NCBI GenBank assembly: GCA_000004695.1
Contig: CM000154.2
Coordinates: 416,001-480,000 of the forward strand
Length of the DNA: 64,000 nt
Direction of reading: 5' to 3'
Source: Dictyostelium discoideum
Lineage: Eukaryota
Shown here piece by piece: positions 1 to 16,159 of this stretch. Below the pieces are notes generated by a model. The model did no database searches. It was given only the letters and a program-made list of their open reading frames with translations, and had not been told where the DNA came from. Every line of letters begins with the position of its first letter. Positions within the stretch are counted from its first letter, which is position 1. A program made the translations under genes and the position numbers.

Positions 1-582
1 CCTTTGGGAAATTCTTACCAACATCATATAACATTTGAAGATACATATACAATTCATTGGCTTCTTTATTCTTTACTCTAATCTCTGCTTTAGTCAATTC
101 AAATGTTCTATCTGGATCACATGGATTAATTAATCCATCCTTACCAACTCCAAACATACCATTACATGAAATTTCAATATAAAATTCAAAATGTTCTCCA
201 CCTTTTGAATTTTCAATTAATTTATATTCTTCTCTTAAATCTTGCCATGTTCCACCAATTAAACCTTTTAAAAAAAAAAAAAAAAAAATTAATATAAGTT
301 TTTGGGAAAAAAAATAAAAAAAAAATTAATTTACCTTGAATTGCAATACCATTCATCCAAATTAAACCTTCACAAGATGAATTCCAAATGAAATGAATAG
401 TTTTATCTTTCCAATCAGTTGGTACGTCAATTGTAACTTTAAACCAATAATTTGTCCATGATGGTCCAAATGATTCTCCAATCTTTGTATCTTTATATTC
501 AAGTTGAATTGCATCTTTAAATTTAAAAAAAATAATAAATAATAAATAATAAATAATAAATAATAAATAATAAATAATAATA

Positions 583-661
<79 letters not shown>

Positions 662-666
662 TATAA

Positions 667-716
<50 letters not shown>

Positions 717-933
717 ATAAATTTAAAAAAAAAAAATATAATAAAAAAAACATACCTTTATAAGAAATTCCTTCAACTTTTGGAGATACTTTAACTTTTA
801 CAGCTTCTGATGATTTTAAAGAAATTAATTTTCCATAAAGGTTTTCTCTTACGAAATAGGTATCACTAAGAAATTTTTCAATTCTTTCAATTGTAACATC
901 TTGATGTTTTAACATTACATTACCAGATGTCAT
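1..933 (-). CDS. alpha-mannosidase, GH38 family (cytosolic MAN2C1-like); 5' part, gene continues past the window start. Exons approx 756..933, 335..514, 1..264
   Basis: Translation MTSGNVMLKHQDVTIERIEKFLSDTYFVRENLYGKL... then KIGESFGPSWTNYWFKVTIDVPTDWKDKTIHFIWNSSCEGLIWMNG... then LIGGTWQDLREEYK...EISCNGMFGVGKDG aligns with the N-terminus of MAN2C1-type alpha-mannosidases (FERVEKF, GDSFGPTWW, ACNGLLGAGKG). Donors GTATGT/GTAAAT and AG acceptors, all phase 1. Confidence 0.8.
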
Positions 934-1697
934 TTTTGTTTATTATTGTTTTTATTTTACTAAAATAGAAAAATAAAAAAATAAATAAATATTATTATTA
1001 TAAATTTTATTAAAATAGAAAAATAAAAATAAAAAATAAAAATAATAAACAATAGATTTATAAAAATAAAAAAAAAAAAAATAAAAATATTGAACCAAAA
1101 AAAAAAAAAAAAAAAAAACAATGTGTGTTGTTTTTTTTTTTCAATTATTAATTTCAAGAAAAAAAAAAAAAGAAAAAAAAAATTAAAAAAATTAATTTTA
1201 AAAAATCTTTGGTGATCATCAAAAATTATGTTGACCCTTTGTTTTCTCCATTTTTCAAAAAAAGAAAAATGAAAAAATGAAAAAAAAATAAATAAATAAA
1301 ATAATAACAATAATAATAATAATAGATAATAAAGTTTAAATAATAATTGGTATAAACAAATATTTATATATTTATTTATTTATTTCATTTTTTTATTTTT
1401 TTTATTTCATTTTAATTCTTTGTTGAAATTGAAATTAAAATTAAAATTAAAATTTAAAATTTTATAATTCCATTAAAAGACCTACCTAAATAAAATAAAA
1501 AAAATAAAATAAAAAAAATAAAAAATAGTAAATTCCCCCAAATTTTAAAATCAAATTAATATATATTTAATCTAATCTCATGATTTTTATTTTCTATTTT
1601 TATTTTTAATTATATAATTATTTAATTAACCAAATTTAGTGATAAAAAAAAAAAAACAAAACTAATTTGCCATAAAAAAAATAAAAAATAATAAAAC

Positions 1698-1746
<49 letters not shown>

Positions 1747-1963
1747 GAAAAAAAAAAAAATTAAAAATAAAAAAAAAAAAATTAAAATTAATTTTTTTTT
1801 TTTTTATCAATTCTTTCGTTTTTTTCCAAACAATTCTCCAAAACTAAACTATAGTGTTTGTGTGTGTATATACAAATAAAATCATAAAAAAATATCAAAA
1901 TATCAAAATAAATAAATAAATAAACACACTATAATATTATTGTATATATATATATAAAATAAA

Positions 1964-2517
1964 ATGACAGAAGTTATTGAAACCAAAGAAGTTGAGAATA
2001 TTATCTCTGAACAATCATTAAAAACAGAATCAGTTAAAGTTAGTAATAAAAGATCAAGAGATGATGAAGAAATGAAAGATTCAGAGGGTGGTGTTAAAAA
2101 AACATCTTTCCCACAAATTAGTGTTGAAGATACTGTAAATTATCAATTTATAATTATCATTTATTTTTTTTTATTTTTTTTATTTTTTTATTTTTTTTAA
2201 ATCAACCAATCACCATCATAAATATATAACTAATATTAATATTAACATATATAAAATTGAATTATTATAGGAAGAAGAACAAATTAGAAAAGTTACTATA
2301 CCATTTAATAGAATTGCACCATTAAAAGCCAACTGGCAACAAATTTATGAACCAATCGTTACACATCTTAAATTACAAATTAGAATGAATACAAAAACAA
2401 GAAAAGTTGAATTAAAAACCTCAAAATCTACTAAAGAAACATCTGCCCTTCAAAAAGCAGCTGATTTTGTACATGCTTTTTCTCTTGGTTTTGAAGTTAA
2501 TGTATGGGAATAAAAAA

Positions 2518-2552
<35 letters not shown>

Positions 2553-2881
2553 CATCATTTATTTAGGAATTTAAATACTAATCCATCATTCATTTTCATT
2601 CATTCATTATTATAGGATGCAGTAGCAATATTAAGATTAGACGATTTATATATAGATTCATTTGATGTTGAAGATGTTAAAATATTAAAAGGAGATAATT
2701 TATCTCGTGCTATTGGTCGTGTAGCTGGTAAAGATGGTAAAACTAAATTCACAATTGAAAATGTTACAAAAACTAGAATAGTTTTAGCTGATAAGTATGT
2801 ACTATAATGAAACTAAGTTTCACTTGAATTATTTATTGTTTTAGACATTAATATGAATCACAATATTAATATAAAACCATT

Positions 2882-2922
<41 letters not shown>

Positions 2923-3093
2923 TATTATTATTATTATTGTTATTATTATTATAGACGTATTCATATTTTAGGATCATATTCCAACATTAGAGTTGCAAAA
3001 GATGCAATTTGTGACTTAATTATTGGTTCACCACCAGGTAAAGTTTACGCAAAATTAAGAACAGTTTCAAGTAGAATTGCAGAACGTTTCTAA
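1964..3093 (+). CDS. pno1: RNA-binding protein PNO1/Dim2 (KH domain, partner of NOB1). Exons 1964..2134, 2271..2501, 2616..2794, 2955..3093
   Basis: Spliced product ...[89 protein letters not shown]...[75 protein letters not shown] is near-collinear with human PNO1. Three introns with GTAAAT/GTATGG/GTATGT donors and TAG acceptors. Confidence 0.85.
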
Positions 3094-3275
3094 ATTGCAA
3101 GAAAAAAAAATAAAAAAAAAAAGAACAAAAAAAAATTAAAAAATAAAAAAAAGAAAAAAAATTTTAAAAAAAAAAAAAAGATTTCTGTATGTTTTATTAT
3201 TATTATTATTTAATTACTATTTCTAAGGTTGAATTGTTATTACTTTTTGGATTTGGTTCTGAATGATAATGTAAT

Positions 3276-3854
3276 CTAATTTTTAATATCTCTTAAATTG
3301 GCAGCTTCAACTTTTTTTGCGATTGCTTTTGCAATAGTTTCATCGAAATGGATATCTTTTAATTTTAAATATTCAATTGTTACGCCATATTTATTTAGAG
3401 CTTCTTTTAATTCATCATGGATTTGATTTGAGATTTTATCGCGGTTATGTAAAACTTGATCCAAGGTATTGTGAGATAATATTTCACAAACTTTAATTTG
3501 TGCCATTTCATTAACAAGTAATATACAATCATTGGCTTTGGTAACTGCTAATTTCGGGTCATGGATTCTGAAAACTACAAGTGCATCAACTGTTAAATTA
3601 ATATTATCCTTGGAAATGATCTTTTGTTTGTCTAATGTATATGTGAAAGTTCTAATATCAACAATATCACATTTTTGAATGAATGGAATAACTATATGAA
3701 ATCCTGCTTCTTTCACTGTATGAAATTTTCCAAAATTAAATACAACACCACGTTCATATTGATTTAAAATTTTAAAAAATCCTCTCTTATTAAATCTTTG
3801 AGTTTGTTTTGTAAATTTAATTGCTGTTGTTGATAATTTTTTAATTGAATTCAT
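3276..3854 (-). CDS. SPFH/band-7 domain protein (stomatin-like), 192 aa, single exon
   Basis: ORF ...QYERGVVFNFGKFHTVKEAGFHIVIPFIQKCDIVDIRTFTYTLDKQKIISKDNINLTVDALVVFRIHDPKLAV... matches the stomatin/PHB core (EYERAVIFRLGR...DMRT...ILTKD...VDGVVYYRV). There is no N-terminal hydrophobic hairpin; the N-terminus is basic. Confidence 0.75.
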   Translation of the reverse strand: MNSIKKLSTTAIKFTKQTQRFNKRGFFKILNQYERGVVFNFGKFHTVKEAGFHIVIPFIQKCDIVDIRTFTYTLDKQKIISKDNINLTVDALVVFRIHDPKLAVTKANDCILLVNEMAQIKVCEILSHNTLDQVLHNRDKISNQIHDELKEALNKYGVTIEYLKLKDIHFDETIAKAIAKKVEAANLRDIKN

Positions 3855-3893
3855 TATATTTATTTTAATTTACAATTATTTAAATTTGTTATT

Positions 3894-3928
<35 letters not shown>

Positions 3929-4290
3929 TTTTATTTTGAATAAAAAAAAAAAAAAGATATTTATGGAAAATGAAAATTTAGGTTTTTTGAGAAATGGCAT
4001 TTTAGGTTGGAATTACAACCTTAAAAGTGAAAAAATTATTTAAAAATAAATTAAAAATCGAGTTTCATAATCTTTGAAAAAAAAAAAAAAAAACAAAAAA
4101 AAAAACAAAAAGCAGATTAAAACACACAATTATTACTTTTTTTTTTTTTTTTTTTTTTTATTATTATTAAAAGAACATAAATTTAATTTTATTTTTTTAA
4201 CTTTGTTATAAAAAAAAAAAAAAAAAAATAGTTTATTAATTTAATTAATAAAATTTTAAAAATAAAACTATTATTTTTATTATTAATAGT

Positions 4291-5614
4291 TTATGGAATT
4301 GTAATTTTTGATTCATCAATATGATGACTATGAATTTGTTGTTTAGAATCTGAAACTCTCATCATTCTTGGTTTAAGGAAAGAATATTCTAGTGATACAT
4401 CAGTATCAATATCCAATTCATCAGCACAATGTAATGGCCAGAATGGGTCCCTTAAGAAAGCACGTGCCATCATAACAATATCACATTTATTGGTTTCTAA
4501 AATACTATCAGCTTCATTTGGTTTATTAATTAAACCAACGGCAGCAGTTTTTAAATTTGTATTTCTCTTTATTTGTTCTGCAAATTTAACTTGGTATAAT
4601 GGACCACCTTGAATTTTTTGATCAATTGAATTACCACCAGATGAGCAGTCAAGAATATCCTGTATATAATTATTAAAATTATTATTATTATTAGAATATA
4701 TATGTGATATAGTTAATTTATTGGAAAAACTTACAACACCAAGAGATTCAAGAATTTTAGCTAAACGAACAGTATCTTCTATATGCCAACCATCTTTCAC
4801 CCATTCTTCACAAGATAATCTTACTGATAATGGTTTTGACATTGGCCAAACGGTACGGACAGCTTTAACAATATCAATTAAGAATTTAATACGACCATTA
4901 AAATCACCACCATATTGATCGGTACGTTTATTTGAAGTTGGTGAAAGGAATGATGAAATTAAATAACCATGAGCACCATGAATTTCAATCATATCGAAAC
5001 CAATTTTTAAACATCTTTCAGCTGATTCCCTAAATTGATTAATAACAATATTGATATCATCTAATGTCATTTCTTTTGGCACTGTTGAACCTGGACCCCA
5101 TGAAATATCAGATGGTCCAATTGGTAACCATCCATGTCCATTTGTATCATCAATTGGAATACTTTCATTTCTTTTTCCTAAAAATGGTGGATGAGTTGAT
5201 GCTTTACGACCTGCATGAGCAATTTGAATTGATGTTTTCTATTTAAAATAATAAAAAAAAAAAATAAATAATTATTAGTTTTTAATTAATTAAATAAATA
5301 AAATAAAAAAAAAAAATAAAAAAAAAAAATATAAACATACACAATCAAATTGACGAATGAAATTAACAATTCTTTTTAATGGTTCCATTTGTTCATCTTT
5401 CCATAATCCTGCATCTGCATACGTAATTCTACCGATATCACTTACTGCAGTGGCCTCCATAACAATCATAGAGGCACCACCCCTTGCAAATGTACCATAA
5501 TGCACTAAATGGTAATCACTCATAAATCCATCAATACTAAAATATTTAATATTATTTTTTATTTTTATTTTAAAAAAATAAAAAAATAATTATAGATTAA
5601 TAAAAAGAAATTAT

Positions 5615-5645
<31 letters not shown>

Positions 5646-5842
5646 TTTAAAATTATACTTTACCTACTATATTGACACATTGGACTAACAACAATTCTAT
5701 TTTTTAATGTTAAATCTTTAACTGTTAATGGAGTGAAAATTTTTGGAGTTGATTGTGTAAGTTCAACTGGTTTACCAGAACTTCCATAATGTTTTGGTAA
5801 AGCATATGGATAAATAAATTCTTTAATCATATGTTGTTGCAT
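4291..5842 (-). CDS. NADH:flavin oxidoreductase, Old Yellow Enzyme / YqjM family. Exons 5664..5842, 5341..5536, 4735..5238, 4291..4659
   Basis: Spliced product ...[43 protein letters not shown]...[14 protein letters not shown]...[28 protein letters not shown]...LDCSSGG...[12 protein letters not shown] is collinear with B. subtilis YqjM and OYE proteins (SPMCMYSS, HAGRKA, HGAHGYL, SNHRTDEYGG). Three introns (GTAAAG, GTATGT, GTAAGT donors). Confidence 0.85.
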
Positions 5843-6253
5843 TTTTGTTATTATTATTATTTTTTACTAAATTCTATTTCCAAAATGAAAAATTATTTTT
5901 ATACTTGGGCTTTTTAATAAAAAAAAAAAAAAAATAAAAAAAAAAAAAAAATTTAATATTATTTTTAGATTTTTAAAAATTTTCTAAAAATAGTAATTTT
6001 TTTTTATTTTTTATTTTTTATTTTTATTTTTTTATTTCTAATTCCAAAAAAATAATAAATCTTAAAAATTACAAAAAAAAAAAAAAATATAAAAAAAATA
6101 AAAAAAAATAAAAAAAAATATAAATAGTTTTATATTATATCTATTGTTTTTTTTTATTTTCTTTTATTTTTTTATTTATTTATTTTAAAAAATAGTATTA
6201 TTACTTTTTTTATTTTATTTTATTTTATTTTAATTTGTAATTTTAATTTTAAT

Positions 6254-7224
6254 TTATTTTTTTAATGATAATTTCTTTTCAATTTCTTTAATTACTGAGA
6301 GAGCACAATCAGTGATTCTACTACCAGGACCAAAGATTGCAACTACACCATGTTGATAAAGGAAATCATAATCTTGAGGTGGAATAACACCACCACAAAT
6401 TACAGAGATATGAGAGGCATCCAATTTCTTTAATTCATCGATTAACTCTGGTACAAGTGTTTTATGACCAGCGGCTAAAGAGCTAACACCAACAACGTGG
6501 ACATCACTTTCAACGGCACTTTTAGCGACTTCTTTAGCGGTGGAAAAGAGTGGAGATATATCGACATCGAAACCCAAATCAGAGAAGCCAGAAGCAACCA
6601 CTTTAGCACCACGATCGTGGCCGTCTTGACCCATTTTGGCAACTAAAATTCTTGGTGGACGACCTTGTTCTTTTGTGAATTTTTTAACGGCATCAATGAC
6701 GGCATCGATTTCATTAGTTTTGCCATAGGCTGATTTGTAAGCACCACTAGCCAAAGAATGAGTTGGAACATAACGACCATAAACAACCTCCAAAGCATCA
6801 GAGATTTCACCAACGGTACAACGAGCACGAGCAGCATTGATTGACAATTCCAAGAGATTACCTTTACCAGTTTTAGCGGCTTCGGTGAGGGCTTCAAGAC
6901 ATTTCTTTGCCTCTTCAGAGTTACGAGTTGCCTTGATTCTCTTGAGACGTTCGATTTGAGCCTCTTTAACTTTTTTATTATCGATTGAAAGAATATCTAA
7001 TTTCTCCTCCTCTTTTAATTTATATTTATTTACACCAACGATAGTTTCGATGCCACTATCGATACGAGCTTGACGACTTGCAGCCGATTCTTCGATTCTA
7101 CGTTTTGGTAAACCCTCGGTGACAGCTTTAGCCATACCACCCATTTTTTCAACTTCTTCAATGATCTCCAAAGCTATGTAATCACGAAAATACCCAAAAA
7201 TATTACCAAACTTTGTCCATAAAC
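6254..7224 (-). CDS. mcmA: methylmalonyl-CoA mutase, C-terminal portion only (inter-domain linker plus cobalamin-binding domain). ORF 6254..7171 is solid; it may extend to an AG acceptor at about 7225
   Basis: [36 protein letters not shown]...[73 protein letters not shown]...[30 protein letters not shown] is about 60-70% identical to the C-terminal 300 aa of human MUT and E. coli ScpA. The roughly 430 aa N-terminal (beta/alpha)8 substrate-binding barrel is not encoded anywhere upstream in the window. Confidence 0.8.
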
Positions 7225-8019
7225 CTAAAAAACAGATATTTTTTTTTTATCTATTTTTAAAAAAAGATATACCTTTTTTTTTTAATTAAAAAAAATGTTT
7301 AGAAAAAAAAAAAAAAAAAAATTAAAAACCGAGATAATTTCTGTGATTCTCGAAAAAAATAATAAAAATAATAATACAAAAAGAAACTTCATGGAAAAAA
7401 AAGAAAAAAGAAAAAAGAAAATCTAATATCCTACACACGACAGTTCATAATTATAGTGCAATTGCAAAATAAAAAAATCGGTTAGGGGTGGATAATTAAA
7501 TAATCAAAAAAAAAAACAATTTTTAAAAAAAAAAATAAAAAAATTAAAAATTCGTGTGTGTAACTGACAACAAATCATTCTTAAAAAAAAAATAAAAAAT
7601 AAAAAATATCATTGCATGTGAATATGATAACTAAAAAAAAAAAACTTCCTTAATTAAAAATAAAAAAAAAACTCAAAGTCATTTAATTAATAATCATCTC
7701 AAATATAAACAAAATTTTAGTACTAAAATTATTATTATTATTATTTTTATTATAATAATTATAATAATAAAAAAAAAAAAAAAAAAAATTTTCATATTAT
7801 TTTATTTATATCTTTTATTTATTTTTATCTTTTTATTTTTATTATTAATTTTATAATTTATTTTCATTTCTTTTTTTTTTAGTTGATATATATTTTTTTA
7901 TTATTCATTTATGTCTACGGCTCACAAAAAAAAAAATTAAAAATAAAAAAAAAAATTAAAAATTAAAAAAAAAAAAAAAAAAAAAAATTAAAATAATTTT
8001 TTTTTTTTAATTTTTTATT

Positions 8020-8445
8020 TTAATTATTGACTCTTCTACTTTCTCTTTTGTTACTAACAGATGAAGTTTCGTTTGAAAATCTTTTGGTAAAATCAGCATC
8101 AGATTGTAATTGATTAGCTCTTTTTTTACCCGTTTTGTTTTTGTTTGATTGAGTTGTGATTCCACCATTATTGGAAGTTGTTGCAGCTTCATGTGTTGAT
8201 CTAACTTCGGTGGTAGAGTGCTCGATTGCTTTTTCAACTAGGTCATCTGTTGATTTTCTTTTGGTTATTTCGATATCCCTTTGCAATTTATTTTACTTGT
8301 CTCCGCCTCTCTAAATTCAACATTTACTTTGTACTTCAAATCATTTTTATCAATAGTAACTTCGTTAAATAATACACCAAATTCATCACTTTGATTGAAT
8401 TCAACATCTTTAAATTCCAAAAAAGCGACATCTTCGGGTGGAAAA
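8020..8445 (-). CDS. hypothetical protein; structure unresolved, two adjacent open frames
   Basis: Minus-strand frame A encodes PEDVAFLEFKDVEFNQSDEFGVLFNEVTIDKNDLKYKVNVEFREAETSK (8292..8445). Frame B encodes QRDIEITKRKSTDDLVEKAIEHSTTEVRSTHEAATTSNNGG...KRESRRVNN (8020..8283); its 'M' in the ORF track is a TTG. There is no convincing intron between them and no ATG for frame A. Confidence 0.25.
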
Positions 8446-8590
8446 ATAAAAAAATAAAAAAAAAAAATACTTTTTAATTTTTTTAATTTTTTTTTTATAT
8501 TTTTTTTTTTAATTTTTTTTTTTTATTTTATTTTTTAAAGTTTCGAACAATTATATATAAAAAAAAAGTAAAAGATATCCCTTCGGTCAA

Positions 8591-8605
8591 TTAAATAATA
8601 GTAAT

Positions 8606-8649
<44 letters not shown>

Positions 8650-8651
8650 TA

Positions 8652-8741
<90 letters not shown>
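8591..8741. repeat. (AAT)n microsatellite, about 50 units
   Basis: Uninterrupted aataataat run. Confidence 0.95.
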
Positions 8742-8745
<4 letters not shown>

Positions 8746-9126
8746 CTTAAATATACAAAAAAAAAATAAAAAAATAAAAAAATAAAAAAAATAAAAAAAA
8801 AAAAATAGAATGAAATGAAATAAAATAAAATAAAAAAAAGAAATACAGAATTTCTTTAAAGAAACTTATTTCGAAATTGTTTAAACAATCATACAGTTTA
8901 AAATTAAATAAATTGTTTTAAACCACCACTTTTTTTGAACACATGAAAATAAATAAGAAATAAAAATAAAAAGATAAAAAAAGATTTTTTTTTTTTTTTT
9001 ATTTTATAATTATTCTTGTCATCAGTATTGTTACTGTAATTAATCCCATGAGTTTTTTTTTATTATTTTTAATTCTTTTATATTTGAGATGATTATTAAT
9101 TAAATGACTTTGAGTTTTTTTTTTAT

Positions 9127-9312
9127 TTTTCTATGCCCAAAATTACCATATTAATTTCGGCAGCCATATTAATTTCAGCCTAAAATAGTTGGTCTGTGCA
9201 TGCCAAAATTAATATGGCTGCTGAAATTAATGTGGTAATTCTAGCAGACATAAGTCCCATGCCAAAATTACCATATTAATTTCAGCAGCCATATTAATTT
9301 TGGCATGGGACA
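9127..9312. repeat. three copies of a roughly 45-bp unit in alternating orientation (A+, B-, C+); copy C is itself a near-perfect palindrome
   Basis: 9133..9180 ATGCCCAAAATTACCATATTAATTTCGGCAGCCATATTAATTTCAGCC; 9199..9240 is its reverse complement; 9257..9310 CCCATGCCAAAATTACCATATTAATTTCAGCAGCCATATTAATTTTGGCATGGG has 15-bp self-complementary ends. Confidence 0.7.
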
Positions 9313-16077: not shown

Positions 16078-16159
16078 TGTAAGCTAAGGGATTCGAACCC
16101 TTGTATCAATGATATTGCAGCCTTAATGCAACCCCTTAGACCAGCTCGGGCAAGCTTAC
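16078..16159 (-). tRNA. tRNA-Leu (anticodon AAG), class II with long variable arm
   Basis: Reverse complement GTAAGCTTGCCCGAGCTGGTCTAAGGGGTTGCATTAAGGCTGCAATATCATTGATACAAGGGTTCGAATCCCTTAGCTTACA. It has a 7-bp acceptor stem, a D arm, an anticodon stem TTGCA/TGCAA with loop TTAAGGC, a 13-nt variable stem-loop and T-loop GGTTCGAATCC. Confidence 0.85.

Follow-up and report, generated by a model that had tools for sequence, protein, structure and literature searches.

What are the three closely spaced repeat units, the middle one reversed, that occupy positions 9127-9312 of the 64,000-nucleotide stretch of Dictyostelium discoideum chromosome 5 analysed here (the window), and what would they do? A preliminary description, drawn from the letters alone, had proposed that they could be the precursor of a hairpin RNA or of siRNAs, the terminal structure of a transposon, or a recombination hotspot. 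We favour, with a probability of roughly 90%, a reading that joins two of these proposals: 9127-9312 is the 5' terminal module of a copy of the transposon thug-S, at about 425.1-425.3 kb of chromosome 5, and folds into miRNA precursor hairpins. The locus is real but already known, as ddi-mir-7131 / miRNA_can_D3 in a thug-S end.

Three units in alternating orientation

Allowing up to three mismatches, we found three instances of a 39-nt unit, CCAAAATTACCATATTAATTTCAGCAGCCATATTAATTT, at 9137-9175 (+), 9206-9244 (-) and 9262-9300 (+). No further copy at this tolerance lies elsewhere in the 64-kb window, and 100 shuffles gave a chance expectation of zero. As delimited by the repeat and unit searches, unit A covers 9133-9180 and has the orientation of unit C. 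Unit B, placed at 9199-9246 by the repeat search and by folding, is inverted relative to both and is the arm common to two alternative hairpins, while unit C (9256-9309; from the sequence, folding and the alignment of element ends) consists of 15-nt palindromic arms around a 24-nt asymmetric core. The repeat search of the window found 97% identity for the direct pair A/C, and for the inverted pair B/C 48-nt arms that are 94% complementary, with 13 nt between them. The + - + arrangement of the preliminary description is thus borne out at 9133-9309, with units of 40-48 nt and none expected by chance; its spacing of about 20 bp is only approximate, as about 18 nt separate the full units A and B, and about 11 nt the full units B and C. 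Copy C had also been called a palindrome, and its ends, CCCATGCCAAAATTA at 9256-9270 and TAATTTTGGCATGGG at 9295-9309, are indeed palindromic, the unit alone folding at -25.9 kcal/mol.

Within every unit an 18-nt subrepeat (CCATATTAATTT plus 6 nt) is duplicated, and the 12-mer CCATATTAATTT is found six times inside 155 bp. The six 18-nt subrepeats form three units of two subrepeats each, set + - +, as the outer part of a terminal inverted repeat (TIR) of about 245 bp. The window as a whole has about 20% G+C and contains extended tracts of (TAA)n, poly-A and poly-T. This composition, the (TAA)n and poly-A tracts and protein matches that are all from D. discoideum led us to reject a bacterial or phage origin.

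The thug-S element and its ends

The DNA transposon thug-S of D. discoideum is said to have been described by Glockner and colleagues in 2001. We compared the window with three related loci from other D. discoideum assemblies (L001, L002 and L003), of which L001 and L002 contain complete elements, at 4061-6040 and 4981-6546, respectively. These are collinear with window positions 7656-9312, where a thug-S copy lies on the minus strand with its 5' end at 9312. The same C-B-A triple, with the same spacing and sequence, is present at L001 4064-4236 and L002 4984-5156, that is, in another strain and in independent assemblies. Both complete copies begin with TGTCCCATGCCAAAATTA and finish with TAATTTTGGCATGGGACA, a perfect 18-bp terminal inverted repeat with TGTCCCATGCC termini (TGTCCC...GGGACA). 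Directly outside these 18-bp termini lie 6-bp target-site duplications (TSDs), ATTAAC in L001 (flanks at 4055-4063 and 6041-6046) and CATATT in L002 (4975-4980 and 6547-6552). In the window, the outermost 18-bp terminal inverted repeat is found at 9295-9312 as TAATTTTGGCATGGGACA, the reverse complement of TGTCCCATGCCAAAATTA, which occupies both ends of L001 and L002; the outermost base of the element, 9312, is the end coordinate given in the preliminary description. Taken together, 6-bp TSDs and TGTCCC...GGGACA termini indicate no obvious DNA-transposon superfamily.

The assignment to thug-S agrees with the literature. Meier et al. (2016, PMC4894637) assigned miRNA_can_D3 to the DNA transposon thug-S, and their interval, chr5 425150-425235, is window 9150-9235. 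That the multicopy miRNA loci are part of thug-S is stated in two papers, including PMC4894637.

An alignment of three 5' ends with three reverse-complemented 3' ends revealed a long imperfect TIR of about 245 bp, made up of unit C, a loop, unit B, a spacer, unit A, an A/T run and a 54-bp segment. The triple is the outer part of this TIR and the 54-bp segment its inner part. The latter (9077-9130), a 100% inverted copy of 7656-7709, is what had earlier been taken for the right TIR. Two ideas of the preliminary description find their place here: the triple is a transposon terminal structure, identified by comparison with complete copies as the 5' terminal module of thug-S, and it belongs with the adjacent inverted repeat, both lying within one terminal inverted repeat. 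The 54-bp repeat itself was rejected as the end of the transposon, since the element extends beyond the triple and terminates at 9312. Complete copies carry the terminal module at each of their ends, and its conservation exceeds that of the interior.

The two ends of the element differ in one consistent respect. The 3' ends (L001 5984-6040, L002 6488-6546, L003 7359-7417) have the 24-nt core of unit C in inverted orientation when set against window 9256-9312, a pattern seen in three of three examples of each end. Because the core is inverted against the symmetry of the TIR, the outermost 54 bp of both ends form a direct repeat, and only the palindromic flanks of 15-18 bp act as TIR. In addition, 28 bp that cover the spacer and part of unit A are absent at the 3' ends.

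Some features of the related loci are recorded here as observations in their own right. The thug-S copy of L003 has a rearranged 5' end (1-3887, 4993-5057), with a single unit followed by unrelated sequence, and adjoins a retrotransposon with RVT_1, RNase H and integrase matches. At L002, a gene for 615 aa with a weak DUF5906 match (2720-4762) comes to an end some 220 bp upstream of the 5' terminus of thug-S, and a 127-aa gene lies on the opposite strand at 2090-2555.

This anatomy bears on an alternative to which we give an even chance, namely that the repeats serve mainly as DNA signals, that is, putative subterminal transposase sites together with the TIR, the small RNAs discussed below being a by-product of read-through. 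Since six 18-nt subrepeats occur in both orientations directly inside the 18-bp terminus, they look like subterminal transposase-binding sites, and in the favoured reading, too, they are putative binding sites for a thug transposase. The presence of the module at both ends of complete copies and its conservation relative to the interior point in the same direction, as do the 6-bp TSDs, which indicate cut-and-paste insertion, and a layout resembling the subterminal repeats of elements such as En/Spm and Ac. However, Dictyostelium DNA-transposon proteins resemble no known transposase and the literature knows none for thug elements, and the small ORF of thug-S has no recognisable domain. A role of this kind would be compatible with the terminal module as a miRNA precursor and need not replace it.

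Two competing hairpins

The preliminary description had predicted that a transcript through the triple would form hairpins of at least 40 bp, and had suggested folding both strands. Folded as RNA, the 201-nt region reaches -81.6 kcal/mol on the plus strand and -85.8 kcal/mol on the minus strand, while shuffled sequences reach about -39 to -41 kcal/mol; the corresponding z-scores are -11.1 (+) and -11.2 (-), so that both strands are far more stable than shuffles. Folded as DNA, the same region gives -52.9 kcal/mol (z = -10.7). The B-C hairpin, whose stem indeed exceeds 40 bp, folds at -70.4 (+) and -73.1 (-) kcal/mol, and the A-B hairpin at -55.1 (+) and -52.5 (-) kcal/mol. Both contend for arm B. 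A transcript through the module can adopt either of two long hairpins, which exclude each other because unit B is part of both.

The annotated miRNA precursor and the published small RNAs

On the minus strand, 9209-9297 (units C and B) matches the Rfam family RF03716 (mir-7131) with 93.8 bits over model positions 1-84 of 84, well above the gathering score of 74 bits, and forms the stable B-C stem-loop. The plus strand scores nearly the same (9211-9297, 93.1 bits). The catalogued mir-7131 precursor is thus the hairpin of units C and B. The consensus of the family is almost identical to the window sequence, and this near-identity supports a link by which Rfam mir-7131 presumably derives from the thug-S miRNAs reported by Avesson 2012. 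Two other thug-S copies also match RF03716 at full length and above the gathering score (94-99 bits), and for the 5' end of each copy it is the ORF-sense strand that scores slightly better. The 3' ends of complete copies fall below the RF03716 threshold because the core of unit C is flipped there, which turns C and B into direct repeats, and because of the missing 28 bp. Other Rfam miRNA families (MIR8742, mir-3913, MIR5512 and others) were rejected as generic long-hairpin matches, their 20-60 bits remaining below the respective cut-offs (47-160). Searching the literature for mir-7131 by name gave no matches, and a looser search gave only irrelevant ones.

Published small RNAs map to the same place. 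The two RNAs of miRNA_can_D3 match the plus strand exactly, D3-3p (AUUAAUUUCGGCAGCCAUAUU) at 9150-9170 in the A arm and D3-5p (UAUGGCUGCUGAAAUUAAUGUGG) at 9213-9235 in the B arm. In S4 Table of Meier et al. (2016, PMC4894637) they have the plus-strand positions chr5 425150..425170 (D3-3p, given in their Table 2 as well) and 425213..425235. Both differ from our matches by exactly 416000, which places the window at about 416001-480000 of AX4 chromosome 5. A look for small RNAs across 9130-9310, as proposed earlier, is in this way answered by known sequences, and these exact matches, with the full-length mir-7131 match, bear out the idea of a hairpin-RNA or siRNA precursor. The same table gives six AX4 loci for miRNA_can_D3 (PMC4894637), across which the reads multi-map, so that the counts are not specific to the window copy. 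The A-arm RNA had 68 reads in AX2, 3.3 in rbdB- and 186 in agnA-, and the B-arm RNA had 47, 26 and 370, respectively (PMC4894637). The 21-23 nt D3 RNAs need the microprocessor component RbdB for normal accumulation (PMC4894637), and the fall of both A-arm and B-arm reads in rbdB- implies that RbdB takes part in making them.

The D3 pair and the Rfam model do not describe the same hairpin. RF03716 spans only the B-C hairpin while the two published D3 RNAs belong to the A-B hairpin, which means that the triple offers two overlapping precursors. The A-B hairpin on the window plus strand would carry the D3 duplex, which there has a 2-nt 3' overhang on one side and a 4-nt overhang on the other; the latter would become 2 nt with a 21-nt isoform. 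The names given by Meier et al., with the upstream A arm as '3p' and the downstream B arm as '5p', clash with an A-B hairpin on the listed strand. In the same paper D3 is 'non-canonical' in the text but canonical in the table (PMC4894637). No trans target of the D3 RNAs is reported in the literature examined, and the supplements of Liao 2018 and Edelbroek 2024 hold no match to 7131, to thug or to the sequences.

We give rather less than an even chance to the alternative that the small RNAs are ordinary transposon-silencing siRNAs and that the miRNA label is only a matter of classification. Their source would then be either the terminal-repeat hairpin, with its long and perfect pairing, or the sense and antisense transcripts that a multicopy element gives. 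It is true that a nearly perfect stem of more than 40 bp is unlike typical miRNA precursors, that the locus is a multicopy transposon, and that both strands fold equally well and score alike in Rfam. Similarly, the B-arm RNA only drops from 47 to 26 in rbdB-, both RNAs rise in agnA- (PMC4894637), and thug-S loci were left out of later miRNA surveys. In contrast, the A-arm RNA falls about 20-fold in rbdB- (68 to 3.3; PMC4894637), the reported products are defined 21-23 nt species with a Dicer-type overhang rather than a smear, and Rfam keeps the family as a miRNA.

A small ORF that starts inside the hairpin

Between the 54-bp arms lies a small ORF on the minus strand whose best database match is D. 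discoideum AX4 DDB_G0290953, a protein with paralogues on other chromosomes and in other strains, its matches all being from D. discoideum. In a tblastn comparison with the window, the AX4 protein is 100% identical in three pieces on the minus strand: residues 1-14 at 9292-9251, 16-53 at 8405-8292 and 54-143 at 8292-8023. Exon 1 (MAAEINMVILAWDLY) corresponds to 9250-9292 (-), also with 100% identity, and the annotated exon 2 to 8023-8405 (-), in two frames that overlap at 8292. The perfect match requires a frame shift with a 1-nt overlap at 8292; judged from the sequence, either the ORF of the window copy is frameshifted or the gene model is forced. The start codon of DDB_G0290953 falls within the core of unit C and its GT 5' splice site in the B-C loop, while the annotated intron takes in unit B, unit A and the 54-bp segment, in agreement with the wording of PMC4894637. 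No Pfam domain was found in the thug-S ORF, which has 89-178 aa in the paralogues. It is the only ORF of the element, in which no encoded transposase was recognised and which is probably non-autonomous.

The position of the ORF start makes it tempting to speculate that the hairpin is a self-limiting switch of the transposon, whose cleavage destroys its own pre-mRNA while an antisense A-B hairpin yields the D3 RNAs, an idea that we regard as improbable. Because the start codon, exon 1 and the 5' splice site lie inside the sense C-B hairpin, cleavage by DrnB/RbdB would destroy the thug-S pre-mRNA. On the other strand, antisense transcripts that run through the A-B hairpin and yield the D3 RNAs might be driven by an internal T-rich tract with a G after it (9115-9135, +), and the shared B arm would make the sense and antisense precursors mutually exclusive. 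We found no description of such a switch in the literature examined.

The tract in question, T10-A-T5 and then CTATG, immediately precedes unit A and is shared by all thug-S 5' ends. There is a loose likeness to the motif that Liao 2018 describes for pri-miRNA start sites (T-rich, then G); since T-runs are common in the D. discoideum genome, the likeness is weak evidence.

The window copy and its missing end

The copy in the window keeps only its 5' terminus. It is without the 3' terminal module of about 155 bp, and homology to thug-S stops at 7656, the edge at which the left arm of the 54-bp perfect inverted repeat (7656-7709) begins. Because the whole 3' terminal module is missing, the window copy is probably immobile. 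Complete copies have 5'-type and 3'-type arms that can be told apart (CTCAAAG vs GTCAAAG, a TAA indel and different inner flanks). The left arm in the window is a mosaic of 5'-type and 3'-type arms that ends exactly at the limit of thug-S homology, a pattern which suggests that, when the 3' terminal module was lost, the arms also underwent gene conversion or repair with each other. For the recombination hotspot of the preliminary description, the loss of the copy's other end provides circumstantial support, and only that.

An assembly artefact at the palindrome has a negligible probability and was rejected for the triple: palindromes are error-prone in assemblies, and the window copy does combine an oddly perfect 54-bp inverted repeat with the lack of one terminal module, but the C-B-A order, spacing and sequence recur at two loci in another strain and an independent assembly, the literature lists six AX4 loci (PMC4894637), and an Rfam family was built from such sequences. 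The preliminary description had allowed for a structure with no other copies, with no small RNAs, or created by the assembly. Other copies and published small RNAs both exist, and none of these three possibilities held.

Surroundings and significance

The only tRNA gene in the window, tRNA-Leu(AAG) at 16078-16159 (-), lies about 7 kb from the element, and at L001 a tRNA gene (3061-3134, -) lies about 930 bp upstream of the thug-S copy; the proximity of tRNA genes to thug-S copies is probably a coincidence. On the other side of the element, ORF fragments at 5290-7171 (-) include a B12-binding mutase-like C-terminal region (305-aa ORF, 6254-7171) and represent an ordinary host gene.

The general value of the locus is that it provides a clear case of a DNA-transposon terminal repeat as a miRNA/siRNA precursor in Amoebozoa, a group in which miRNAs arose independently of those of animals and plants. 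As a discovery it carries little weight, being present in Rfam and listed by coordinate in a 2016 paper. Its anatomy, with the termini, TSDs, subrepeats, flipped core, two hairpins and the start and splice site of the ORF, may aid the search for the thug transposase, and may also help to ask whether the small RNAs regulate thug-S itself. In the literature examined, we found no description of three of these features: that the hairpin contains the start and splice site of the ORF, that the two precursors exclude each other, and that the terminal unit has a fixed flipped core.

Comparison with known systems

The closest counterparts of the window locus are RF03716 mir-7131 and miRNA_can_D3, which have the same sequence and show no material difference from it. 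At the level of the element, the counterpart is thug-S, reportedly described by Glockner et al. 2001. The element is multicopy, its TIRs are long and imperfect, its small ORF contains an intron, and complete copies have identical 18-bp termini and 6-bp TSDs. The window copy differs in that the 3' module of about 155 bp is missing, the ORF lies in two frames at 8292 and the 54-bp arms are identical.

Transposon-derived miRNA hairpins are also found elsewhere, as in human mir-548, which comes from Made1 MITEs, and in plant MITE-derived MIR genes. Like the window locus, these arise when the inverted repeat of a DNA transposon gives a long hairpin that is cut by the miRNA/Dicer machinery and, being multicopy, appears as a 'family'. 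In the Made1 and MITE cases, however, it is the pairing of both TIRs of a short element that gives the hairpin, whereas the thug-S hairpin is formed by inverted subterminal units of a single end.

As for the DNA level, En/Spm (CACTA) and Ac/Ds elements carry subterminal repeat arrays, in which short motifs occur in both orientations inside the TIR. thug-S is similar in having short motifs repeated both ways just inside its TIR, its sites being putative. Its termini and 6-bp TSD, in contrast, are unlike the conventions of CACTA (3 bp) or hAT (8 bp) elements.
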